Source: an uncultured delta proteobacterium (lineage in GTDB: Bacteria > Desulfobacterota > Binatia > UBA9968). Taken from it: a DNA stretch of 48,201 bases. The notes under the pieces were generated by a model. The model was not told where the DNA came from. It saw only the letters and a program-made list of their open reading frames with translations, and did no database searches. The translations under genes and the position numbers were made by a program. Where the stretch lies: contig CAVWLW010000018.1 in NCBI GenBank assembly GCA_963755715.1, forward strand, positions 1 through 48,201, read 5' to 3'. Shown here one piece after another: positions 4,306-47,359 of this stretch (position 1 is the first letter of the stretch; the number at the start of each line of letters is the position of its first letter).

Positions 4306-6498
4306 TTACAAACCTTCCTGCGACCTTTTGACTTCTCGGCGGCGCGAGTGGAGCACGGGTTCGGTGTAGCCGTTGGCTAGGTCACGGCCGTTTAAGACAA
4401 GCTCCAACGCCGCCTGAAAAGCGATGCTTCGGTCATAGTCCGGTGCCATGTTGCGGTAGTTCGGATCGCCGCGATTTTGCCGATCGACCACCTGGGCCAT
4501 GCGCCGAAACGTCTCGATGACCTGATTCTTCGCGACGATGCCATATTTGAGCCAGTTGGCGATATGCTGGCTGGATATTCTGAGCGTCGCCCGATCCTCC
4601 ATCAACGCGACATCATTGATATTCGGAACTTTCGAACAGCCGATGCCCTGATCGACCCAGCGAACGACATAGCCCAGGATGCCTTGCGCATTGTTATCCA
4701 GCTCGCGTTGAATCTCCTCCGGCGTCAACTTCCGCTCCAACAACAGCGGCGGTGTGAGAATATGCTCGAGGTTCGCGCGGCCCCGTTTCGCCAGTTCGCG
4801 CTGCCGCTTGGCGACATCGACATAGTGATAGTGCAGCGCATGAAGCGTCGCCGCGGTCGGCGACGGCACCCAGGCGGTGTTGGCGCCGGCTTGCGGATGG
4901 GCGATCTTCGTCTCGACCATCGCGCGCATCTCGTCCGGCATGGTCCACATGCCTTTGCCGATCTGCGCTTTGCCGCGGAATCCCGTCTCGATGCCGATGT
5001 CGACGTTGCAATCTTCGTAGGCTTTGATCCATGGCTGGGTTTTGATCTCTTCCTTCGGCAGCATCGCGCCCAGCTCCATGCTGGTATGGATCTCGTCGCC
5101 GGTGCGATCCAAAAAGCCCGTATTGATGAACACCACCCGATCTTTCGCAGCCCGGATGCATTCCTGCAGATTGACCGTGGTGCGCCGCTCTTCGTCCATG
5201 ATGCCGATCTTGAGAGTTCTCCGCTTCAAGCCGAGGGCACCCTCGATGCGTTCGAACAACTCGACAGTAGCGGCGACTTCCTCCGGCCCATGCTGTTTCG
5301 GTTTGACGATGTAAATGCCCCCCGTTTTGCTGTTGCGATATTTTCCCTTGCTCTTGAGATCGTGAATCGCGGCAAGCGCCGTGATCATGCCGTCGAGAAA
5401 ACCCTCGGGAATCTCTTCGCCGCTCTTCGTCATTACGGCGTCGGTATACATGTGCATGCCGACATTGCGCACCAGCAGCAGGCTTCTGCCGGGCAAAGTC
5501 AGCTTTCTTCCGGTCGGCGTGGTAAAGACTTTGTCCGGATTCAGCCTTCGGGTCAGCGGGCGGCCGTTCTTTTCGAATGTGGTTTCCAGCGTTCCTTTCA
5601 TCAGGCCGCACCAATGTCGATAGACCGCGATCTTGTCGGCGGCGTCCACCGCCGCGACCGCGTCCTCGCAATCTTCGATGGTGGTGATCGCCGCCTCGAG
5701 GACCACGTCTTTCACGCCTGCGGGGTGGGCCTTGCCGATGGGATGGTTTCGGTCGAATTGAATCTCGATGCGCGCGCCGTTGTTTGTCAGGACGATGTCC
5801 GTCAACTCTCCGGCGCTTTCCCGATAGCCGAGAAATTTTCGTCCATCGGCGAGACTTGTCGTCTTGCCGTCCTTGAGCATCACTGTGAGTTGTTTCTTAC
5901 GGCCGAACCGCTTGAGAAAAAATCGGCTGACGTCCGAGTAACTGCCGCGTTTCAGAGCGACGACTTTGTCTAAAAACTCCTCGGTGTAGGCGATGACCTT
6001 GGCGCCGCGCTTGGGATTGTAGGCTTCACCCTTTTCCGCGCCGTCCTCTTCCGGGATCACGTTAGTGCCGTAGAGCGCGTCGTAGAGACTGCCCCAGCGG
6101 GCATTGGCGGCGTTCAAGGCATAGCGGGCGTTGTCGAGCGGCACCACCAACTGCGCCCCGGCGATGGAAGCGATCTCGGCGTCGACGTTGGCCGTGGTGA
6201 TTTTAAAATTTTTCCCCTCGGGGACGAGATAACCGATCTCTTGCAGAAAGGCAGCGTATACCGGGAGGTCAAACGGCTGACCGGAGCGGGCCAGGTGCCA
6301 CTCATCGATCTGCTTTTGCAGCCGGTCACGCTTTGCCAAAAGCGCTCGATTCTTCGGCCCGAGATCTCTCACGATCGCGCTGAGAGATTTCCAAAAGCCG
6401 TCAACCTTCACCCCGGTTCCCGGCACGATCTCGTCGCGCACCAGACGATAGAGCTGTTCATCGATCCTAAGACCGCCGACCTCGACTCTGCTGGCCAT
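4306..6498 (-). CDS. glcB: Malate synthase G
   Basis: [63 protein letters not shown]; GGAG RBS favours ATG 6498. Confidence 0.96.
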
Positions 6499-6649
6499 GG
6501 TCATCTCCGTTTCGTGTGCACCCGAGGCAAGCACAAAATCGCACGGCGAGACGCAAAAATCTTCAGCGTGCTTCGGATAGTTTTATTCTTGAGTTCTACC
6601 CCTTCTTGTCAACTCCGTCGGTCCTTAATGCCGGATGCAGCGCATCGCC

Positions 6650-7241
6650 TCATTCATGGAAGCGACGCGTGGCGGCGTCGGCAGCTTCTTTCACTCCGGG
6701 CAGAGGGCAGAAATTGTTAGCCTCGATGCCGAAGACCGGGTTGAACTTGCTGCGAAAGTTTTCGAGCGCGATCACCGCGGCCAATTCGACCAACTCCTCG
6801 TCGGTAAAATGTTTCTTAAGACGTTTGAAAAACTTATCCGTGACCCGTTTACCGGTGTAGGTCATGCGCTCGGCGAGCTCCAGTGCCAACCGCTCGCGCA
6901 GGGAAAACAAAGAGTTCTTCTTGTAATCTCCCAGCACGGCTTCGACCTTCTCTGCTGCAGCCCCGTTTTGCATCGCCCCGGATGCGTTACTGTCAATTCA
7001 ATACGGGCAACCGTTGATATGGGCAGTCCTGACGCAGACCAGGTTGCGTAGCTCCGGCGCTATCAGCCCCGATTCCTGAATGCCCTGGGCGAGTGCCTGG
7101 ACTCCTTTCTGGATCGTCGGCCTGACGGCAGAGACCTGCGCAGCGTTTGACACAAAGCCATGACGTTTCTTCTGCTCTGCGAAAATTTGCCGCACCTCAT
7201 CATTGGCTTCATTTTCCAGTTACACCTTTAATCCTGGCCAT
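6650..7241 (-). CDS. AhpD/carboxymuconolactone-decarboxylase-family protein with in-frame UGA (probable selenocysteine, CxxU); one apparent +1 frameshift near codon 7
   Basis: ORFs 6998..7195 and 6650..6973 are in the same frame: …HINGCPY-TGA-IDSNASGAMQNG…; ATG 7241 with AGGA RBS joins after removing 1 nt near 7220 (MARIKGVLENEANDEVRQ…); AhpD-like tail ERLALELAE…FTDEELVEL…NF. Confidence 0.82.
6970..6985 (-). promoter_or_regulatory. Candidate bacterial SECIS hairpin
   Basis: Stem starts 12 nt 3' of the UGA: GCAUC-CGGGGC-GAUGC with a G-rich apical loop about 18-19 nt from the UGA. Confidence 0.6.
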
Positions 7242-7586
7242 GAATGTTCCTTTTGATTTACTTCACGATGTCGATTCATCTGAGTCTCAGTTGTCCGTCA
7301 TTGTAAAATGGGCAAAGCGATCAATACCGCGAACCTTTTGCTCGTTCAAATAGTATCCCGGGTGTGCGAGTAAGAGAGTTTCAACCAGGTACAATTTTTC
7401 ATACGTGGATGATCGCAATTGCCGATAAGTTCGCGACCAAAAAGTTCCCGATCTCCGTTATGTTCCTGATAGAGACGTCCCCAATCGAGGATCTTAACCG
7501 GCGCGTGACTCATCGGCATCGGCAACCCGGATCGATGCATATTTCGTGCTGGTAGGCTCAAAACGATATCGGGGTTTTCAGGTCGG

Positions 7587-8295
7587 TTAGGCTGCTCTCT
7601 CCATCGCTTGCGCCATGCCGCCGAAATAGACGCGGTGAATGTCCATCGAATCCGTCGCGGTCGTCAGGACATCCTGCTCCCGTCCCGGCGCGACATATTT
7701 CTCCAGAACATCGAGGAACATGTCGGAATGTTTTACGTCGGCTTTGCTATGCGCGGTGAAGTTCGGCACCTGCGCGGCGCTGAAATTTAGATCGCGCGAC
7801 CAAATCTTGTAGAGCCGGCTGCAATTGCCCCCGCCGATATCGCCCAACAGCCGATCGTCATTGGTCCACTCGGCGATGGTCGACGCAGCGATGGCTTCCT
7901 GCCACGGACGGGTGCGCGCGATCCAGAACCACGCGTACATGGCCGCCTTGGTGGTGGGCAACGGCGCGGCGTTCATCACCTCATCGGCGCTCAAGCCGAC
8001 TTCTTTTCCCTGACGAACAATGAGATCCATATGGCCGGTCTTGGAGTGCTCGTCTTCGACCAGCTCCTCATACTCGTGCGCTAAGATTCGTTGCTTAACC
8101 TCGAACTCCGGACAATTCGCCGCTACCTGCGGCCAATTGTTACGTCGCTGGCGGGCATAAAGGCCTAGCTGCAGAGAGATATATTCGCGCCCGCTCCGCC
8201 GTCATTTTGATCGAGTAAAAATGTTCCATCTCCGGCGTGCGAAAGAAATCCCTGACGCACTCACCGAGCGCCTGCCGCCATTCTTGTGCTTGCAC
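7587..8295 (-). CDS. Heme-oxygenase-like diiron protein (CADD/PqqC/TenA fold); one apparent +1 frameshift near 8175
   Basis: GTG 8295 with AGGAGG RBS; repaired protein about 235 aa with HEYEELVEDEHSKTGH, AEW and HSKADVKH motifs. Confidence 0.78.
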
Positions 8296-8407
8296 CGAAA
8301 TACCTCCTAGAAAATAAATCCTCTGTTTCGCAGTTTGTACGTCGAATCAATAAGTTCGACAATACCCGTCGATCTACTTTTTCTGCTGCGGATTCTTCTC
8401 CGCACAC

Positions 8408-9371
8408 CTACCGTGCCGCCTTGGCAAAAACTTTTTCGATAAAGCCATCTTTCACCAGTTTATCGACCACGCTATTGTCGATGACTTTGGCAGTGAGCGT
8501 TTCAGCGTCGACGCCTTTGACGGGTTCGAATTCCAAGACCGTAGCCACATTTCGGCTATCGACCCGGGGTGTTTTTTCAGTGAACTTGGTGACGAGAGCG
8601 TAAGTTTCGTCGAGAAAATCGGCATCATTCCGTTTGAAATATTTTGCCAGCACCTTGAGCGTGGCTTCCTTGTCGTGATTCATCGCGCCGACGGCTTCGA
8701 TATAGGCTTTGACCACGCGCTCCGCGGTATCGGGATTCTTTTGCAGAAACTCCCGGGTGACCGCCATGACGTTCATAGAAAAGGGAATGTCGAGATCGAA
8801 AGCGTTCAGCAGGGCCCGTGCCGGCGCTCCCGGCTTGACTCCGGTCACGATGCCGGCAACTTGCTTCTGTCCAAAAGCGGCTTGCATTTCCGGCGTGCCG
8901 CCGAGCGGGCGCATGGTGACGGATTTTTCCAGCCCAAGCTTGCGCAAGATCAATGTCGTCACCGTGTGCCCCGATGAATTGAAGCGCGAGATGCCGAGGG
9001 TTTGGCCTTTGAGCTGATCGGCGCGCGTGATGTCGGGTTGGACATAGAAAGTCATGGCCGGGCGATTGGTCATCGCTGCGATCGCCAGCACCGGCGCGCC
9101 GCGCGCCGCCGCCAAGACGACGCCGCTGATCCCGGGGGCGCTCACGTCGAGACTGCCGCCGAGAAGCGCTTGGATATTCATCCCGCTGGAAGCGATATAG
9201 ATGAGCTGGACGTCGAGACCGTATTTCTTGAACGCGCCGGTCTCATGGGCCATCCAGACGCCTGCAACGCGTGGGCCCGACGACTGAATAGGACAATCGA
9301 AGAGGAGCGGCCGATACCTCGCCCGCACAACAAAGCCAGAGCGCCACAACCTGCAAGAGCAGCTTTTTCAT
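8408..9371 (-). CDS. ABC-type substrate-binding protein, NMT1/THI5/SsuA-like; apparent +1 frameshift near 9270
   Basis: Signal peptide MKKLLLQVVALWLCCAGEVSA from ATG 9371 joins ORF 8408..9349 after removing 1 nt; GAFKKYGLDV, LKGQTLG, IDNSVVDKL. Confidence 0.82.
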
Positions 9372-37215: not shown

Positions 37216-37644
37216 ATGATTTCATTAGACCTCAGCATTCTTTATCAGATCATTCTGTTCGTTGCCCTATGGCTGATTCTCAATAAGATTCTATTTCAGC
37301 CTTATTTGCAGCTGCTCGAAGAGCGCGAGCGCCGGACCATCGGCGCCGAGCATGATTCCGCCGACTTGGAACATGAAGGCGCGCGTCTGCGCGCGCAATA
37401 CGAGGGAAAAATCGCGCAAGCACAGAGCGCCGCCTACGCCGCCAAAGACGCCATTTTGCAAGAGGCGCGGCAACAGCGCGAAAAAATTTTAGGGCAAGCG
37501 CGCGCAGAAGCTGCGAGCAAACTTGAACAGGCGCGACGCGAGATCGCCCTGGCGCTGGAAAAAGAAAAGGCGCTGGCCGCCGCTGAGACGGCGACGGTTG
37601 CCGGAGAAATGGTCAGTAAAGTGCTCGGAAGGAAGGTCGCGTGA
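37216..37644 (+). CDS. atpF: ATP synthase Fo subunit b'
   Basis: N-terminal TM helix, LNKILFQP…ERE, coiled coil; first gene of the atp cluster. Confidence 0.88.
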   Translation: MISLDLSILYQIILFVALWLILNKILFQPYLQLLEERERRTIGAEHDSADLEHEGARLRAQYEGKIAQAQSAAYAAKDAILQEARQQREKILGQARAEAASKLEQARREIALALEKEKALAAAETATVAGEMVSKVLGRKVA

Positions 37645-38192
37645 GCGTGCTCGAATTCTTCACGACGGCCCAGGCTTACGCATCCGCGGCGGCCGAAGCC
37701 GAGCATCACGCGCCGTCGATCAACGACATTTGGTTTCCACTCGCCAACTTTCTCATTTACGCTTTCATCATTGTCAAGTTTGCTTTCCCGCTAATCCGAG
37801 ATTTCCTCAAGTCGCGCCACGACGAAGTGGTTTCCACGGTCAGCCAGGCCGCCGCTAAAAAACAGGCGGCCGAGGCGCTGGTGAACGAATACCGCGCCAA
37901 ATTGTCCGGTCTCGATAGAGAAGTTCAGTCGATTCATGCTTCGCTGCGCGAGGAAGGCGAACGAGAAAAAAGAAAACTTGTCGGCGAGGCTCAGGCGACT
38001 GCGATCAAAATTCAAGAAGACGCCAATTTTCTGGCCGAGCAGGAAGTAAAAATGGCCCGGCAAAAACTGCGCGAAGAGATGGCGGATCAGGCCGAGGCGA
38101 CGGCGCGCCAACTCATCGAGCGCAATCTTTCCGGCGCCGATCAGAACCGTCTCGTGGACGATTTCATTCGGACGATCGGACAGAGTCGATGA
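37641..38192 (+). CDS. atpF: ATP synthase Fo subunit b
   Basis: NFLI TM helix, coiled coil, DQNRLVDDFI. Confidence 0.88.
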   Translation: MSVLEFFTTAQAYASAAAEAEHHAPSINDIWFPLANFLIYAFIIVKFAFPLIRDFLKSRHDEVVSTVSQAAAKKQAAEALVNEYRAKLSGLDREVQSIHASLREEGEREKRKLVGEAQATAIKIQEDANFLAEQEVKMARQKLREEMADQAEATARQLIERNLSGADQNRLVDDFIRTIGQSR

Positions 38193-38731
38193 TCGAAGGC
38201 AGCTTAAGTCGCAGGTACACCAAGGCGCTTTTTCAATTGGCCCGCGATGGTGGCCAAGAAGAAAAAATCGGCCAAGAGGTCGAGCAATTCTACGCGGCCT
38301 ACAGCGGTTCCGATCTGCAGCAGGTTCTCACGAATCCGGCATTCAGGATCGAGGCGCGCAAAAAGATTCTCAATCAGGTGACCGCAAGCCAGCAACTTTC
38401 GGCGTTGACGAGTCATTTCCTTTCTCTACTTTTGGATCGCGATCGTCTGCCTTATTTACCGGGCATCGTCAGTTGCTATCGCCGACTGCTCAATGAAGCC
38501 AAAGGGCGGATCGACGCCAAGGTCGTGAGCGCGAGCGCGGTCGAGCCTGAGCGGCTTGCCCAATTGAACGATCGTTTGCGCAGCATTTCGGGCAAAGACG
38601 TGGTTTTGCAGCAGGAAACCGATGCGAGCTTGCTCGGTGGCCTGCTGCTCGAATTGGAAGGAAAAATTTACGACGGCAGCATTCGTACGCAGCTTGAAAA
38701 CATGAAACAGCGCATCGTGCGCGGCTACTAA
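38189..38731 (+). CDS. atpH: ATP synthase F1 subunit delta
   Basis: [15 protein letters not shown]…YDGSIRTQL. Confidence 0.93.
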
Positions 38732-38742
38732 GGAGTCTGAAC

Positions 38743-40251
<1,509 letters not shown>

Positions 40252-40279
40252 GGTGGAAATTAAGGGTGCCACGGAGTTG

Positions 40280-40344
40280 TGTCATCCTGAGCGCATTGGC
40301 GAAGGATCTCGGTCGAGATTCTTCAGCTATTCCTCAGAATGACA
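40280..40344. repeat. Branched palindromic element TGTCATCCTGAG…CTCAGAATGACA
   Basis: Outer stem TGTCATCCTGAG/CTCAGAATGACA and inner stem GAAGGATCTCG/CGAGATTCTTC. Confidence 0.75.
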
Positions 40345-40364
40345 GCAAATAAGAATTAGCAGCC

Positions 40365-41231
40365 ATGGCGACACTAAAAATAATACGCAAGCGGATCAGC
40401 TCGGTGCGCAACACCCAGCAGATCACCAAGGCCATGAAGATGGTTTCGGCAGCCAAGCTGCGGCGCGCGCAAGACGCGGCGGTGGCGGCGCGGCCCTACG
40501 CCGAAAAGATGACCGAACTTTTAAAAAACGTCGCGGCGCGGGTGTCGAGCGAAGCGCATCCGCTGCTCCAGGCGCGTGAGGAAAAGAAGATCCAACTGGT
40601 TTTATTCACCTCCGACCGCGGGCTGTGCGGCGGTTATAATGCCAATCTGATTCGCGCGGCGGAAGCATTCATTCGGAAAAACGCCGGTGAAAAGGAAGTC
40701 GAATTGACGCTCGTTGGCCGTAAAGGCGCGGATCATTTTCGCCGCCGCCGAGCCAATATCGTCGACCGTTACATCGGCATTCTGGCGCCGCCTGCGGATG
40801 AGTTGGCGGCGGAGATCGGCCAGAAACTCATGGCGCGTTTTATCAACGGCGAGACCGACGCGGTCTATATACTTTACAGCCGGTTTCGCTCGGCGCTTTC
40901 CCAGGTGCCGACCTTGGAAAAGCTTCTGCCCGTAGCATTGAGCGAAACCAGCGATACCGAGGCGCAACAACTTACGGAATATTTATACGAGCCGGGAATC
41001 GAGCAACTGTTGGCGAGTCTCTTGCCGCGGATTACCGACGTGGCGATGCAGCGGGCGCTGCTCGAAGCGACGGCAAGCGAACACGGCGCGCGCATGACCG
41101 CGATGGATTCGGCTACCAGCAACGCCTCGAAGATGATCGGTAGTTTGACCCTGCAGATGAACCGGGCGCGCCAAGCGTCGATCACCCGCGAGCTGATGGA
41201 AATCGTCGGCACGGCGGAAGCGTTGAAATAG
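40365..41231 (+). CDS. atpG: ATP synthase F1 subunit gamma
   Basis: ITKAMKMVSAAK, SDRGLCGGYN, SEHGARMTAM, RQASITRELMEIV. Confidence 0.98.
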   Translation: MATLKIIRKRISSVRNTQQITKAMKMVSAAKLRRAQDAAVAARPYAEKMTELLKNVAARVSSEAHPLLQAREEKKIQLVLFTSDRGLCGGYNANLIRAAEAFIRKNAGEKEVELTLVGRKGADHFRRRRANIVDRYIGILAPPADELAAEIGQKLMARFINGETDAVYILYSRFRSALSQVPTLEKLLPVALSETSDTEAQQLTEYLYEPGIEQLLASLLPRITDVAMQRALLEATASEHGARMTAMDSATSNASKMIGSLTLQMNRARQASITRELMEIVGTAEALK

Positions 41232-41239
41232 CAAAATTT

Positions 41240-42736
<1,497 letters not shown>

Positions 42737-42738
42737 GA

Positions 42739-42826
42739 AGGCATCAGGCAATAGGCAACAGGCAATAGTAAGAAAAGGAAATTTCCAGGCCGGGGGCTAA
42801 TGCCTATTGCCTCATGCCTGTTGCCT
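42739..42826. repeat. Inverted heptamer-array hairpin (AGGCAAT / ATTGCCT, 4+4 units)
   Basis: AGGCATC AGGCAAT AGGCAAC AGGCAAT … AATGCCT ATTGCCT CATGCCT GTTGCCT. Confidence 0.8.
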
Positions 42827-42837
42827 AGGAAGTTGTA

Positions 42838-43254
42838 ATGGCAGACAAGATCAGACTTAGAGTGGTGACGCCGACCCGGCTGGTTCTGGATGAGGACGTC
42901 GATGAGGTAACCGCGCACGGGGAGTTGGGTGAGTTCGGTGTGTTGCCCAATCACATCGCTTTCTTATCGACCCTCGTCGCCGGCGAACTGACTTATAAGC
43001 AGGGCGCCACGAAAAGAACCCTGGCTGTGGGCGGCGGTTACGCCGAGGTTTTGGATAATGTTATGACTGTGCTGGCGCCGTCGGCGGAGTTTGCCGGCGA
43101 AATCGATGTAGCGCGCGCGCAACGCGCCAAGGAACGAGCCGAAAAGCAGTTGGCCCAGCTTAATCAGGAAGAAAAAGATCGGCAGACGGCCGAGACCGCG
43201 TTGCAGAGAGCTCTGGTACGGCTACAGGTTGCCAGCAAAGAAACAAGAAGATAA
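42838..43254 (+). CDS. atpC: ATP synthase F1 subunit epsilon
   Basis: VVTP, GEFGVLPNH, GGYAEV, helical C-terminus. Confidence 0.95.
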   Translation: MADKIRLRVVTPTRLVLDEDVDEVTAHGELGEFGVLPNHIAFLSTLVAGELTYKQGATKRTLAVGGGYAEVLDNVMTVLAPSAEFAGEIDVARAQRAKERAEKQLAQLNQEEKDRQTAETALQRALVRLQVASKETRR

Positions 43255-43280
43255 GAGATAAGGAAACAGGAGGAAATTTT

Positions 43281-44414
43281 ATGGCCGACGCAGCCAAACA
43301 AGAACCCGTCATTACAATGTGGAGCAAGGAATTTACTTACGATCGCTGGATGAAGTCGAAGGGAATCCCGATTCACCGCGGTTATTTTATCGAAGATCTA
43401 CGCACGATTGAATTGGAATGGTGGGAGGAGCGCGGCTGCAAGTCGGCGTTTATCCAGCTTCTGGGTCAAGAAGGCGTGAGCGCGTCGCGAGTCACAGAGG
43501 TCCCTCCCGGAAAATCGCTGCCGCCGGTGAAATTTGCCCTCGATGAAATCGTCTACGTGTTGTCCGGCCGCGGTCTGACAACGGTTTGGGCCAGCGAAGG
43601 CAAGCCCAAAAAGAATTTCGAGTGGCAAGAGCACTCGATGTTTCTAGTGCCGCGTAATCATTGGCACGTCTTCAGCAACATGCAGGGCGACAAACCGATC
43701 CGGCTGTTCCATTACAGCTACATGCCGATGGCGATGTCGGCGCTGCCGGAGCCCGACATGTATTTTAATAACCCGTACGAATCGAAAATTACCGTGGCGG
43801 ATGGCGACTTTTACTCCGAAGCCAAGATGGTTCAAGCCAAGGATGCGGACGAAGGCTTGGGCATGCGCGCTTTCTGGTACGGTAATTTTTTCCCGGACAT
43901 GCGTGCGTGGAACAAGCTCGATGCCAACGAGCGGCGCGGCGCCGGCGGCAAGAGCGTGTTCATGCAATTTCCAAATTCTGAACTGACCGCCCACATGTCG
44001 GTGTTCGCGCCGAAGACTTATAAGAAAGCGCACCGTCATGGCCCGGGCCGCGCGATTATTATCCCGGCGGGCGAAGGCTATTCGATCATGTGGGAAGAGG
44101 GCAAAGAAAAAATCGTTTGTCCGTGGCACGAGTGCAGCATGATCACGCCGCCGGACAAGTGGTTTCACCAACATTTTAATGCCGGCGGCGACATGGCGCG
44201 CTATCTGGCGCTCCATCCGCCGATGCAGTTCCATGGCCACGCAGAAAAGGTCGAAGACCGCGCGAAAGATCAGATCGAATATCCGCGAGAAGATCCTTTT
44301 ATCCGAAGCAAGTTCGAAGAAGAACTGGCCAAACGGGGCATCAAGAGCGAGATGCCGGCCGAATGTTACTCGAACCCCGAATACGAGTGGTCGAAAGCGA
44401 TGGGCAAACAATAA
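43281..44414 (+). CDS. Bicupin protein A (gentisate-dioxygenase-like fold, function unknown)
   Basis: N-cupin DEIVYVLSGRG…VPRNHWH; C-cupin KAHRHGPG…PPDKWFHQHFN; AGGAGG RBS. Confidence 0.8.
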   Translation: MADAAKQEPVITMWSKEFTYDRWMKSKGIPIHRGYFIEDLRTIELEWWEERGCKSAFIQLLGQEGVSASRVTEVPPGKSLPPVKFALDEIVYVLSGRGLTTVWASEGKPKKNFEWQEHSMFLVPRNHWHVFSNMQGDKPIRLFHYSYMPMAMSALPEPDMYFNNPYESKITVADGDFYSEAKMVQAKDADEGLGMRAFWYGNFFPDMRAWNKLDANERRGAGGKSVFMQFPNSELTAHMSVFAPKTYKKAHRHGPGRAIIIPAGEGYSIMWEEGKEKIVCPWHECSMITPPDKWFHQHFNAGGDMARYLALHPPMQFHGHAEKVEDRAKDQIEYPREDPFIRSKFEEELAKRGIKSEMPAECYSNPEYEWSKAMGKQ

Positions 44415-44449
44415 CTTTAACGGCTAGAATTTCCTAAAAGTTGGTTGAT

Positions 44450-44485
44450 GGAATCCCCGCTCCAGCGAGCGGGGATTCCTATTTA
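44450..44485 (+). terminator. Perfect 13-bp hairpin between cupin A and the eutA-like gene (weak terminator or stabiliser)
   Basis: GGAATCCCCGCTC-cagc-GAGCGGGGATTCC-TATTTA. Confidence 0.65.
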
Positions 44486-44500
44486 TGAAGGACACAAAGA

Positions 44501-46039
44501 ATGACGGACCGAGGCAAAAACATGCACGATGATATTTACGATCATGACCATCCCGATAATTTCGTTATTGGGGAAGACGAAATCGTCACCGATATCGAAG
44601 GGTTGGAAATGTTCTCGCTCAAAAGCGTGGGCATCGACATCGGATCTTCGACCTCGCATCTGATTTTCTCGCTGATCACGTTGCGCCGCGAAGGCGCCTC
44701 GCTCTCGGGAAAGTTTAGAGTCACTGCCCGCGAAGTCCTTTATCGCTCGCCGATCATGCTGACGCCTTACATTTCGGCGACCAAGATCGACACGGATAAG
44801 GTCAACGACTTCATCCATGCGGCGTACAAGGACGCCGGCCTGACGCCCGAGGATGTCGACACCGGCGCGGTTATTATCACTGGCGAAGCACTCAAGAAAG
44901 AAAACGCTCAGCCGATCGTCGAAAACTTCGCCAAATATTCCGGCAAGTTCATCTGCGCTGCGGCGGGTCACAATCATGAAGCTTTGCTCGCAGCGTACGG
45001 CTGCGGCGCGGTGGATCTGTCGAAGAGCGAACACAAAACCGTGCTCAACGTCGATATGGGCGGTGGAACCACGAAATTTTCACTCGTTGAAGACGGCGTC
45101 GTGTCCCAAACGGCTTCGATCAACGTGGGCGCGCGGCTGATCGCTTTCGACGACGACGACAAGATCACCCGCATCGAAGATGCCGGGCGAGTCATGATGA
45201 AAGAGGTTGGTTACAAGGTCGAGCTTGGGCAGAAAATCACCGACAAGATGAAAGAAGATTTTGGCGCTTACATGGCCAAAATCCTTTTCGAAGTTATCGA
45301 AGAAGGTCCGAATTCACCTATGGCAAGTTCGTTGATGGTCACGCCGCCGTTTGCCAATTATCGTGGATTCAAGCAAGTGCAACACATCGTTTTCTCCGGC
45401 GGCGTTTCCGAGCATGTTTACGATCGGGATCCGAAAGCCTACGGCGATATTGGGCCGGTGCTCGGCAAGAACATGCGCGAGTATCTCAAGAAGCTACCCA
45501 AGGACGTTTTGCGCGAACCCATCGAGGGTATCCGCGCTACGGTCATCGGCGCCGGCGAATACACGATCCAAGCCAGCGGCAACACCAGCTACGTTTCCAA
45601 CGAAAAAGCGCTGCCGATCCATGGTCTGAAGGTGATTCAAGCGCCGATTCGCGACGGCGAATCCGTAAGCGAAGCGCTAAAGCAGGCGCTGCGTAAGTTC
45701 GATCTGCCCCGTTTCACATCCGGCTTGGCTTTGTCTCTGACCGTGAGCGGTGTGCCGGATTATCAGTCCGTCAGGCGAATTGCCGAAGGTGTGGCGCAGA
45801 TTCTCAAAGACGCCGATGATCCAAAATGTCCACTCTATCTGACCTTGGACCTCGACATCGCCAAGTCGCTCGGCGGCATTCTCAAAGATGAGTGCCATGT
45901 GACGCGGGATATCATCGCTATCGACGGCATCGAAGTCGGCGACTTGGATTACATCGATATCGGCGAATGCTTGGGCATCACCGAAGTCATTCCCGTCACC
46001 GTCAAGTCGCTGATGTTTCCGACGACCCATGCCGATTAG
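44501..46039 (+). CDS. eutA: EutA-like ASKHA ATPase (ethanolamine ammonia-lyase reactivase family) with His/Asp-rich N-terminus
   Basis: SVGIDIGSSTSHLIFS, TGAVIITGE, NVDMGGGTT, FSGGVSE, IRATVIGAG, GDLDYIDIG, VKSL; alternative start 44522. Confidence 0.82.
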   Translation: MTDRGKNMHDDIYDHDHPDNFVIGEDEIVTDIEGLEMFSLKSVGIDIGSSTSHLIFSLITLRREGASLSGKFRVTAREVLYRSPIMLTPYISATKIDTDKVNDFIHAAYKDAGLTPEDVDTGAVIITGEALKKENAQPIVENFAKYSGKFICAAAGHNHEALLAAYGCGAVDLSKSEHKTVLNVDMGGGTTKFSLVEDGVVSQTASINVGARLIAFDDDDKITRIEDAGRVMMKEVGYKVELGQKITDKMKEDFGAYMAKILFEVIEEGPNSPMASSLMVTPPFANYRGFKQVQHIVFSGGVSEHVYDRDPKAYGDIGPVLGKNMREYLKKLPKDVLREPIEGIRATVIGAGEYTIQASGNTSYVSNEKALPIHGLKVIQAPIRDGESVSEALKQALRKFDLPRFTSGLALSLTVSGVPDYQSVRRIAEGVAQILKDADDPKCPLYLTLDLDIAKSLGGILKDECHVTRDIIAIDGIEVGDLDYIDIGECLGITEVIPVTVKSLMFPTTHAD

Positions 46040-46068
46040 CTGAGTTCCGATTCGTTCGTTTACTGTTG

Positions 46069-46102
46069 AAAGGCCTCGCTCCATGCGGGGCCTTTGTTTT
46101 TC
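46069..46102 (+). terminator. Intrinsic terminator after the eutA-like gene
   Basis: AAAGGCCTCGC-tccat-GCGGGGCCTTT-GTTTTT. Confidence 0.7.
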
Positions 46103-46222
46103 GAGGTAGTTGGCGATCCTGAATTTGCCATTGCCGCGCTGTGACCATCCTGCGGTCGATTTGTTTCGATTTTCAATGATGATATGAGTTGATGAAACAA
46201 TTTATCTGGGAGGAACGCGGTC

Positions 46223-47359
46223 ATGTCCAAGGCGATGCCAACGGAACGAAAAATGTGGAGTAAAACATTTACCCACGATGAGTGGATGGAAAGCCAAGGC
46301 ATTCCGATTCATCGCGGTTATTACATCGAGGATTTGAGAACGTTGCAGCTCGGCTGGTGGGACGCGCGCCAGTGCAATTCCGCTTTTATCCAGCTCGTCG
46401 GCCAGGAAGGCATTACCTCGGCTCGGGTGACGGAAATTCCACCGGGGAAAACTTTACCTCCGTTGAAATTCGCCCTCGACGAGATCGTCTATGTTGTCGA
46501 AGGCCGCGGGCTTACGACCATATGGGCCGGCGAAAAACGGCCGAAGAAAACCTTCGAGTGGCAGAAACACAGCATGTTCCTCGTGCCGCATAATTATACG
46601 CACCAGTTCGCCAATATGCAGGGGGACAAGCCGGTGCGTTTACTCCAGTACAACTACATGCCGCTGACATTGTCCGGCGTGCGCGACGCGAATCTTATTT
46701 TCGGGAATTCGTACGAGGGCTCCGACATCCAGAACGAGATGGATTTCTACTCTGAAGCCAAGATGATCTCGCAAGACACCTTGGATGAATCGTGGGGCCG
46801 GCGCGCCTATTGGTACGGCAACTTTTTTCCCGACATGCGCGCCTGGGACAAGCTCGACGCCAACGTCCGGCGCGGCGCCGGCGGGCGGAGCGTTTACATC
46901 CAATTTGCCGACTCCGAAATGTCCTGCCACATGTCGGTTTTCGATGCGCGTTTATATAAAAAAGCGCACCGCCACGGCCCGGGTCGCGTGATCGTCATTC
47001 CCGCCGGCGAGGGTTACTCGATCATGTGGGAGGAAGGAAAAGACAAAGTCGTCGTGCCCTGGCACGAAGCGAGTTGCTTCACGCCGCCAAATAAATGGTT
47101 TCACCAGCACTTCAACGCCGGGGGCGAACCGGCGCGCTATCTGGCGCTCCACCCGCCGAGGCAGTTTCTCGGCCACGCCGAAAAAGTCGAAGACCGCGCC
47201 AAAGATCAGATCGAATACGTCAACGAAGATAGATGGGTGCGCGAGAAATTCGAAAGCCAACTGGCGAAGCGGGGCTTGACTACGCTGATGCCGCCGCAAA
47301 CATACACCGACCCCGACTTCGAGTGGAACTGGAAGCCGTTTTTGAAGAGCGCGAAATAA
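46223..47359 (+). CDS. Bicupin protein B (close paralog of 43281..44414)
   Basis: Same blocks as cupin A: GIPIHRGY, FALDEIVYV, WYGNFFPDMRAW, KAHRHGPG, WFHQHFN. Confidence 0.8.
   Translation: MSKAMPTERKMWSKTFTHDEWMESQGIPIHRGYYIEDLRTLQLGWWDARQCNSAFIQLVGQEGITSARVTEIPPGKTLPPLKFALDEIVYVVEGRGLTTIWAGEKRPKKTFEWQKHSMFLVPHNYTHQFANMQGDKPVRLLQYNYMPLTLSGVRDANLIFGNSYEGSDIQNEMDFYSEAKMISQDTLDESWGRRAYWYGNFFPDMRAWDKLDANVRRGAGGRSVYIQFADSEMSCHMSVFDARLYKKAHRHGPGRVIVIPAGEGYSIMWEEGKDKVVVPWHEASCFTPPNKWFHQHFNAGGEPARYLALHPPRQFLGHAEKVEDRAKDQIEYVNEDRWVREKFESQLAKRGLTTLMPPQTYTDPDFEWNWKPFLKSAK

Follow-up and report, generated by a model that had tools for sequence, protein, structure and literature searches.

A EutA-Like ATPase Encoded between Two Paralogous Bicupins in an Uncultured Binatia Bacterium: A Candidate ATP-Driven Helper for Cupin Metal Sites

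A EutA-Like ATPase Gene Lies between Two Bicupin Genes

The window analysed here is a stretch of 48,201 nucleotides of contig CAVWLW010000018.1 from an uncultured delta proteobacterium of the Binatia, in which a gene for a EutA-like ATPase lies between two genes for proteins with two cupin barrels (bicupin A and bicupin B). The ATPase, whose database label is "EutA", belongs to a separate and widespread branch of the family that is found beside cupins rather than beside B12 enzymes. The evidence supports a functional partnership of this branch with the bicupins. The reading we favour, with about an even chance of being right, is that the ATPase uses ATP to load or reactivate the metal site of cupin dioxygenases of the Fe(II) type.

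Three open reading frames (ORFs) on the + strand encode bicupin A (43281..44414, 377 aa), the ATPase (44501..46039, 512 aa from the first ATG) and bicupin B (46223..47359, 378 aa). This agrees with a preliminary description of the window, made from the sequence alone, which had reported two paralogous bicupins of about 377 aa around a EutA-family ATPase. Bicupins A and B were 68% identical across 359 residues, and the A-type orthologues (window, L026, L018 and L016) and B-type orthologues (window, L016, L017 and L042) formed two clades with support of 100 each. The motifs quoted earlier, namely DIGSST, DMGGGTT and SGG in the ATPase and PPVKFALDE/PPLKFALDE and HRH...WFHQH in the bicupins, were all readable in the translations.

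The ATPase Is a Full-Length EutA-Family Protein outside the Canonical Clade

The ATPase matched Pfam EutA (PF06277) from end to end, with an E-value of 2.2e-121 and residues 40-506 aligned to profile positions 3-474 of 475, and its nucleotide motifs were intact, as had been described. It shared 34% identity with E. coli EutA (b2451) across 480 residues. However, it stayed under all four NCBIfam EutA equivalog cut-offs, scoring 351, 277.4, 242.3 and 236.5 bits against cut-offs of 598, 769, 952 and 799 bits, respectively. The phosphate and adenosine motifs of the ASKHA (acetate and sugar kinase/Hsc70/actin) fold were invariant in 65/65 EutA-like proteins (D46, G48, D185, G187-189, T190, G300 and G301). 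Other conserved residues were specific to the clade, namely H9, C152, K192, E226 and Q357; C152 was 95% conserved, with Val at that position in canonical EutA. The AlphaFold2 (AF2) model of the ATPase had a mean predicted local distance difference test score (pLDDT) of 86.6, and residues 1-33 were predicted to be disordered (pLDDT <50). Fold matches of the core were headed by Ppx/GppA phosphatases and also included HgdC-type activators (1hux and 4ehu) and DnaK, and there was a weak Pfam match to BcrAD_BadFG. A sequence search of the PDB with the ATPase found no solved EutA; its sole match, phosphoglucosamine mutase (E 0.0023), was taken as spurious.

A maximum-likelihood tree (LG+G4, quick search) was calculated from 65 EutA-like and 12 canonical proteins. 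A branch of length 0.86 set all 12 canonical EutA proteins apart, with a support of 100 in the Shimodaira–Hasegawa-like approximate likelihood ratio test. The phylogeny against canonical EutA had been named beforehand as a check, and the ATPase does not group with canonical EutA. The canonical sample was narrow, consisting mostly of Enterobacterales together with Azonexus, Pseudothauera and one metagenome-assembled genome (MAG) of Verrucomicrobiota, which leaves the root and the depth of the split unsettled.

As control loci, 77 were collected with E. coli K-12 EutA from an annotated eut operon. E. coli EutB was matched in 75/77 of these canonical loci but in 0/86 EutA-like loci, the window included. 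The two canonical loci without a EutB match were one E. coli and one Shigella record; in E. coli K-12, a prophage lies between eutA and eutB. The window's genome comprises 7.4 Mb in 76 contigs, with 93.6% completeness and 4.21% contamination, and no EutB, EutC or bacterial microcompartment shell domain was found in the whole of this 93.6% complete genome. The absence of eutB, eutC and microcompartment genes noted earlier for the window thus extends to the genome, and the possibility raised there that eutBC lies elsewhere in it was not borne out. The accompanying statement on cobalamin genes holds as far as B12-binding domains on the window's contig are concerned, other cobalamin genes having lain outside the search. 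Among the five other carrier genomes examined, one, that of Paenibacillus thalictri, has EutB on another contig. An ethanolamine role for this branch of EutA is excluded by the evidence.

The genome contains 11 matches to B12-binding domains, and 0 of these are on any of the five contigs with a EutA-like gene. A 606-aa ORF with a B12-binding domain (C64:129147-130958) is located 1.2 kb downstream of an orphan bicupin (C64:126734-127936), with no EutA-like gene nearby.

EutA-Like Genes and Bicupin Genes Are Linked across Genomes

Five full-length EutA-family genes were identified in the window's genome, and contig 6 opens with a near-identical partial copy. A bicupin gene neighbours four of the five, though the ATPases are only 36-44% identical. 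These four are the window locus, with two bicupins beside the ATPase; C27, with a bicupin directly upstream of the EutA-like gene; L010 (C32), with a bicupin directly upstream on the - strand (7343-8531) that is split into two overlapping ORFs; and L012 (C51), with a bicupin 1.9 kb downstream. The two parts of the split bicupin cover profile positions 6-222 and 213-368 (a frameshift or sequencing error). At L012, two tandem haem-oxygenase-like di-iron genes (PF14518, 7155-8613) lie between the EutA-like gene and the bicupin, and NMT1-type binding proteins and a DHDPS-family gene are encoded upstream. The fifth EutA-like gene, L009 (C69), has no bicupin nearby.

Public loci were collected by a pattern scan with the five paralogues as query and one genome per species, and the best 80 loci of 572 confirmed relatives were used. 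A profile search of all ORFs found a bicupin in 51/80 of these loci, and in an all-against-all clustering of the ORFs every other cluster was present in at most 17 loci. In the tree set of 65 EutA-like genes, 38 were adjacent to a bicupin (≤300 nt) and 6 more had one within 6 kb. The cupin-ATPase adjacency, whose conservation had been proposed as a check on the partnership, recurs in MAGs and isolates of several phyla. The carriers are labelled Candidatus Binatia, "Deltaproteobacteria", Chloroflexota/Dehalococcoidia (including SAR202), Alpha- and Betaproteobacteria, Actinomycetota (Micromonospora) and Bacillota (Paenibacillus thalictri). Cultured carriers among them are Paenibacillus thalictri, Micromonospora sp. 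and Polaromonas sp. The order and strand of the genes varied, with the cupin first (C>E>), the ATPase first (E>C>) or the two convergent (E>C<), which argues against mere inherited synteny. Loci L068 and L088 have 3 or 4 bicupins for a single ATPase. The bicupin family was present in 4/5 other carrier genomes. Within the window's own phylum the cassette is patchy, with EutA-like profile matches in 3/151 sampled genomes.

At E≤1e-10, the cupin profile matched 32 times in the genome of the window. A search of all ORFs with our own profile found 25 full-length bicupin paralogues at E≤1e-96, one of which is the contig 6 near-duplicate, and seven more distant paralogues at 1e-21 to 1e-30. HxH...HxH was present in all of them. 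The ratio of cupins to ATPases in this genome is thus about 25:5, or about 5:1. Orphan paralogues, such as C68:63223-64341, C55:2748-3842 and C24:81695-82855, stand repeatedly beside UbiD, Amidohydro_2 and NMT1-type genes. A wider search with bicupin A gave 7209 relatives among 8000 candidates scored.

Two tallies of gene neighbours were made. The public tally covered 135 ORFs from 29 diverse loci, of 167 candidates, with the window's close relatives omitted as redundant; 20 ORFs were removed manually (every ORF of L078 and L089, in which the cupin is far from the ATPase, and seven outlying ORFs from L080, L081, L082 and L086), and 12 further ORFs of more than 640 aa were also dropped. The commonest neighbours were MFS_1 (9), ATP-binding cassette (ABC) permeases (7), ABC ATPases (6), solute-binding proteins (4-5), UbiD (4), class II aldolase (4), TctC (4), TctA (3), Rieske (4), LigXa_C (3) and LysR (3), and IclR regulators were present too. 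The own-genome tally covered 74/106 candidate ORFs, which surround 20 of the 24 strong paralogues; the 32 ORFs left out were beyond the fetched stretches or at the two window genes and the C51 and C27 paralogues. Here the commonest neighbours were NMT1-type binding proteins (9), SBP_bac families (6-8), UbiD (5), Amidohydro_2 (5) and haem-oxygenase-like proteins (2). Genes of these kinds usually accompany the catabolism of aromatic acids and recalcitrant carbon.

The Bicupin Carries a Dioxygenase-Like Metal-Site Signature in Its C-Terminal Barrel

Pfam detected only the N-terminal barrel of bicupin A (Cupin_2, residues 72-143; Cupin_2/Cupin_1 span, 61-143). The second barrel was shown by the AF2 model, in which two beta-barrels are predicted (mean pLDDT 87.5, predicted template modelling score 0.89), and by matches to solved bicupins. 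In an alignment of family members, W48, G96, G98, E114, W115, P124, N133, G266 and G353 were invariant (60/60). The residues of the metal site, Y247, K249, H251, H253, H296 and H298, were likewise invariant in 60/60, and an alignment of 64 agreed; the fourth His, H298, was as invariant as the three site His. In bicupin A these motifs (Y247, K249, H251-x-H253 ... H296-x-H298) are encoded at 44031..44174 (+), and in bicupin B the corresponding HxH...HxH motifs are encoded at 46967..47110 (+), where the offset of the A/B alignment gives H249, H251, H294 and H296. In the N-terminal barrel, K-F-A-L-D-E stands in place of HxH. The earlier proposal of a 3-His site in the C-terminal barrel and none in the N-terminal barrel is upheld, and it is strengthened by the match of H296-x-H298 to the ligand and outer-shell pair of gentisate 1,2-dioxygenase (GDO).

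The bicupin A model was aligned (VIA-align) to 48,161 representative chains. The top matches were GDO 3bu7 (Z 20.9, root-mean-square deviation (rmsd) 3.8, 266 aligned residues), salicylate 1,2-dioxygenase (SDO) 2phd (Z 20.5) and 2d40 (Z 19.3). Foldseek of the cupin model against the PDB returned only generic bicupins (template modelling score 0.42-0.46, rmsd 10-15). In a sequence search of the PDB the cupin gave one marginal GDO match, again 3bu7, at E 8.7e-4, in which the KAHRH stretch was aligned. The best NCBIfam match was 5-aminosalicylate 1,2-dioxygenase, with 18.5-22 bits against a cut-off of 650, and none of the curated dioxygenase models of NCBIfam was matched above its cut-off. Matches in the ESM Atlas were only to clusters called "cupin" or "hypothetical".

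GDO is reported to require ferrous iron, and in 3bu7 the iron ligands His119, His121 and His160 and the outer-shell catalytic His162 are located in the N-terminal domain, according to PMC4019311; the same source places the site of homogentisate dioxygenase in the C-terminal domain. The bicupin shares with GDO and SDO, which lead its fold matches by a small margin, an HxH...HxH pattern made up of three His ligands and an outer-shell His, but its active site would be in the C-terminal rather than the N-terminal barrel. With HxH...HxH in the C-terminal barrel and K-F-A-L-D-E in the N-terminal one, the bicupin is most likely, judging from alignment and model, an Fe(II) dioxygenase that resembles GDO but has its active barrel swapped. 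A binuclear or carbamylated-Lys site built from K249 and four His was set aside, since the GDO ligand and outer-shell His pair explains H296-x-H298.

The ATPase Has an Acidic, His-Rich N-Terminal Tail

The true start of the ATPase is probably the ATG at 44522, giving the N-terminus MHDDIYDHDHPD, because GAGG is present at -11 to -8 before this ATG and homologous ORFs also start with MH; the longest ORF starts exactly with MH in 19/65 EutA-like homologues. From this start an acidic, His-rich tail beginning MHD and predicted to be disordered is encoded at 44522..44617 (+). The N-terminal extension of the 65 EutA-like proteins had median values of 32 aa, 10 Asp+Glu, 1 Lys+Arg, 3 His and 0 Cys. 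Counted by alignment column, MH[DE] was found in 36/65 proteins, and [MVL]H[DE] in 44/65 when Val and Leu start codons were allowed. At least three His were present in the tail of 56/65. In contrast, in all 12 canonical EutA proteins (12/12) only 3-7 residues precede the first strand, none of them His, and the tail is absent.

The Ni(II) site of HypA is reported to be its N-terminal MHE motif, where the terminal amine and His2 bind the metal (PMC7055735). The ATPase shares with HypA, HypB and UreE, as described in that source, a Met-His-acid start followed by His-rich sequence, and a function connected with a nucleotide-hydrolysing partner. HypA is a small protein with a Zn finger and has a G3E GTPase as its partner, whereas the tail of the ATPase is fused to the ASKHA domain itself and has a median of 0 Cys; the ATPase has neither the Zn-binding CxxC pairs nor the fold of HypA, and no hydrogenase or urease is involved. 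The likeness of the tail to HypA is an analogy and not a homology.

Predicted Complex and Signs of Expression

The multimer modelling suggested earlier for the ATPase with the cupins was carried out for the ATPase with bicupin A. The predicted complex scored 0.60 (0.59-0.61 in three runs), the best of 3 controls scored 0.00, and the result is read as weak support for binding. The mark used was reached by 58/80 solved complexes and 2/110 mismatched pairs, counts that hold roughly because our own alignments were used; marks at 0.60 or under belonged to only 7 of those 80 solved complexes, plus both of the mismatches that passed. The runs agreed in at least 44% of contacts, and the pLDDT of the partner was at least 80.

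The 4.1-kb stretch was found nearly whole (share 0.82-0.92) in 14 soil or rhizosphere DNA runs from 8 studies. All three genes are covered in part by contigs that come from four soil RNA libraries of 3 studies and show 0-6 differences per 150-450 nt. One of these contigs, X15 (44090-44540, 0 differences), crosses the hairpin between bicupin A and the ATPase described below. These contigs are no more than a hint of expression.

Terminator-like hairpins were found on the + strand in the gap between bicupin A and the ATPase (44450..44479, a 13-bp stem with 9 GC pairs and the tail TATTTAT) and past the ATPase stop (46069..46095, an 11-bp stem with the tail GTTTTTCGAG). The first was kept in 5 close relatives (L014, L026, L017, L018 and L016) and was not present in the more distant relatives L020 and L024.

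Proposed Function of the ATPase–Bicupin Pair

In the favoured reading, the bicupins would be non-haem enzymes with a mononuclear metal site. Most likely they would cleave rings as Fe(II) dioxygenases, in the manner of gentisate/salicylate 1,2-dioxygenase, with the active site in the C-terminal barrel, H251, H253 and H296 as ligands and H298 in the outer shell. The family may serve to degrade carbon compounds that are carboxylated or aromatic. The EutA-like protein would be a dedicated ATP-driven cupin helper and not an ethanolamine-lyase reactivase. It would dock on the cupin, and its ASKHA ATPase cycle would open the buried site, in much the way that EutA forces the release of damaged cobalamin from EutBC. 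A metal ion held on the Met-His-Asp, His/Asp-rich tail could then be inserted into the cupin or exchanged there. Such help might consist of loading, of exchange after mis-metallation or of rescue after oxidation of Fe(II), and one ATPase would serve several cupin paralogues. We infer the physical binding, which metal is transferred and in which direction, the substrate and each biochemical step.

We favour a shared helper over a fixed A/ATPase/B complex or an obligate subunit. A stoichiometric subunit is argued against by the 5:1 ratio of cupins to ATPases, by loci with several cupins per ATPase and by the metal-chaperone-like tail. A fixed complex is likewise disfavoured by the paralogue ratio of about 25:5, by the ATPases that lack a bicupin and by the hairpins between the genes.

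Several observations weigh against the proposal of an ATP-driven metal-site helper. What is known of the system here comes from genes, alignments and models. Hairpins stand between all three genes, so that co-transcription is not shown, and the RNA libraries may contain DNA and yielded contigs that reveal neither transcript ends nor strand nor level. In the window's genome an ATPase adjoins only about 6 of the roughly 30 bicupin paralogues, so most cupins may not need one. Conversely, no bicupin was present in the fetched locus for 21/65 EutA-like genes. L009 (C69) and about 14 Binatia-labelled loci of its type (L046-L062, L065 and L070) form a conserved EutA-like clade without a bicupin, and in G134, a 99% complete genome with a EutA homologue, no bicupin was found at E≤1e-20. 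The tail is evidently not required for cupin pairing, because some cupin-adjacent ATPases have nearly no tail His, namely L011 (1), L035:3990 (0) and L080:878 (0). No metal-uptake or nickel-specific family was among the 25 commonest neighbour families of either tally, although rarer ones are possible. As to the bicupin, it is only marginally similar in sequence to named dioxygenases (E about 1e-3), its active site is in the opposite barrel from that of GDO, and GDO and SDO lead the next fold matches, seed globulins and oxalate decarboxylase at Z 18.4-18.8, by only about 2 Z units.

Alternative Roles of the ATPase

The ATPase could be an assembly or folding chaperone of the Hsp70 kind that handles no metal, its acidic tail serving as a docking or regulatory segment. 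The ASKHA core does resemble the nucleotide-binding domain of DnaK, among other folds, and such a role would sit well with the cupin-adjacent ATPases that lack tail His and with the lack of metal-transport genes among the frequent neighbours (the top 25 per tally). We nevertheless consider it unlikely, as it leaves aside the three or more tail His of 56/65 proteins and the MH[DE] start, Ni-binding in HypA, of 36/65, and EutA itself acts by cofactor exchange rather than by folding. Salmonella EutBC is reported to need EutA (PMC9426561).

To a similarly small degree probable is that cupin and ATPase together form an ATP-consuming enzyme in which, for example, the ATPase phosphorylates or activates a substrate for the cupin. 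Most cupin paralogues stand alone, at a ratio to the ATPase of about 5:1, some loci carry a single ATPase with three or four cupins, and hairpins separate the genes, all of which count against a catalytic subunit; furthermore, the nearest relative in sequence is a reactivase and not a kinase. This must be set against the kinases and phosphatases within ASKHA, the Ppx/GppA phosphatases at the top of the fold matches, the invariant nucleotide motifs and the (de)carboxylases of the UbiD and Amidohydro_2 families that recur nearby.

A redox reactivase, which would couple ATP to the re-reduction of an Fe(III) site as the HgdC/BcrAD activators do, or as XylT ferredoxins do without ATP, is more doubtful still. 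Each chain has one conserved Cys, too few for the bridging [4Fe-4S] cluster that HgdC-type activators carry, and no ferredoxin or reductase was among the frequent neighbours of cupin-linked loci. XylT-type [2Fe-2S] ferredoxins are dedicated accessory proteins that are encoded with catechol 2,3-dioxygenase and restore its oxidised iron site; they differ from the ATPase in transferring electrons without ATP, in belonging to an unrelated family and in having a client of a different fold, an extradiol dioxygenase. In favour of a redox role are the fold matches to 1hux and 4ehu, the weak BcrAD_BadFG match, the clade-specific C152 where canonical EutA has Val, and the presumably ferric iron reported for GDO crystals in PMC4019311.

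Reactivation of an unlinked adenosylcobalamin enzyme, with the cupin neighbours being coincidental, is very improbable in spite of the full-length PF06277 match and the 11 B12-binding-domain matches in the genome, given that none of these 11 is on a contig with a EutA-like gene, that bicupin adjacency recurs in several phyla with changing gene order, and that the proteins form a separate clade with EutB in 0/86 loci.

Comparison with Known Systems and Significance

The ATPase resembles EutA in its PF06277 family, its two-part architecture over the whole length and its intact ASKHA motifs, and may share with it an ATP-driven reset of the cofactor site of another enzyme. Unlike EutA, it falls in a separate clade, scores under the equivalog cut-offs, is never beside EutB, and has an added His/Asp-rich tail and clade-specific residues; its presumed client is a cupin, and that of EutA is a B12 enzyme, the adenosylcobalamin-dependent ethanolamine ammonia-lyase. 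The diol and glycerol dehydratase reactivases DdrAB, PduGH and GdrAB are ATP-dependent, Hsp70-like proteins that exchange a damaged cofactor. They differ from the ATPase in having B12-enzyme clients and a two-subunit architecture, and none of them was among the listed fold matches of the ATPase core in a general fold search. We know of no partner ATPase for GDO or SDO.

No description of a cupin-linked EutA homologue was found in the full-text literature, with subscription journals and supplements outside the coverage; the matches dealt with the eut operon, or with an ectoine gene that is also called eutA but is unrelated. The earlier remark that no characterised system of this kind is known was therefore upheld within that literature.

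Thousands of genes from soil, groundwater and marine sources are annotated as "ethanolamine utilisation protein EutA" or "cupin domain-containing protein". If the favoured reading is true, the EutA label is wrong for this branch of ATPases, and a new way to mature or rescue non-haem metal enzymes would be at hand. Since cupins keep their metal buried and suffer easily from oxidation or mis-metallation, there is a real gap that an ATP-driven exchanger would fill. Likewise, a large dioxygenase-like family tied to UbiD, Amidohydro_2 and Rieske proteins would become a tractable target for the breakdown of recalcitrant aromatic carbon. In a bolder form of the proposal, for which we see rather less than an even chance, His-tailed EutA-like proteins would be the first ASKHA metallochaperones, prying open cupin sites for the insertion or swap of a metal, with one ATPase per cupin fleet in soil and marine degraders of aromatics; the EutA family would then consist of general cofactor-exchange ATPases with at least three kinds of client, namely B12 lyases, cupins and perhaps tungsten aldehyde oxidoreductases.

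The last of these clients is suggested by locus L192 (G134:C12:17000-30500), which may represent a third kind of client for EutA-type ATPases. Its ORF 5853-7331 on the - strand encodes a member of the EutA family (PF06277, E 1.9e-131) that lacks the His-rich tail; the cluster also encodes a tungsten-type aldehyde:ferredoxin oxidoreductase, two 4Fe-4S proteins and a flavin adenine dinucleotide (FAD)/4Fe-4S oxidoreductase.

Other Features of the Loci

At the loci of the L009 type, the tail of the EutA-like protein reads (L/M)HEGHDD...HPMWRSERI. The neighbours there are DUF4175, a tetratricopeptide repeat (TPR) protein, a small 4Fe-4S protein and an oxaloacetate-decarboxylase-alpha-like gene.

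The contig of the window ends 840 nt past bicupin B. The start of contig 6 (C6:1-2000, L013) carries a near-identical second copy of window positions 45377-47359, in which the 3' part of the ATPase gene shows 95.8% amino acid identity over 144 residues and bicupin B 99.2% over 374. The assembly was probably broken here by a strain variant or a collapsed repeat. Scans of the window for transfer RNA and Rfam families gave no matches.

Upstream of the module, bicupin A starts 26 nt past the stop of a 138-aa ORF, and the gap between them (43255-43280) contains no terminator-like site. Judging from its translation, the 138-aa ORF would encode the epsilon subunit of ATP synthase, and the six upstream ORFs at 37641-43254 are read in the same manner as ATP synthase b, delta, alpha, gamma, beta and epsilon. 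ORF clusters that match these ATP-synthase-like genes recur in 12 related loci.

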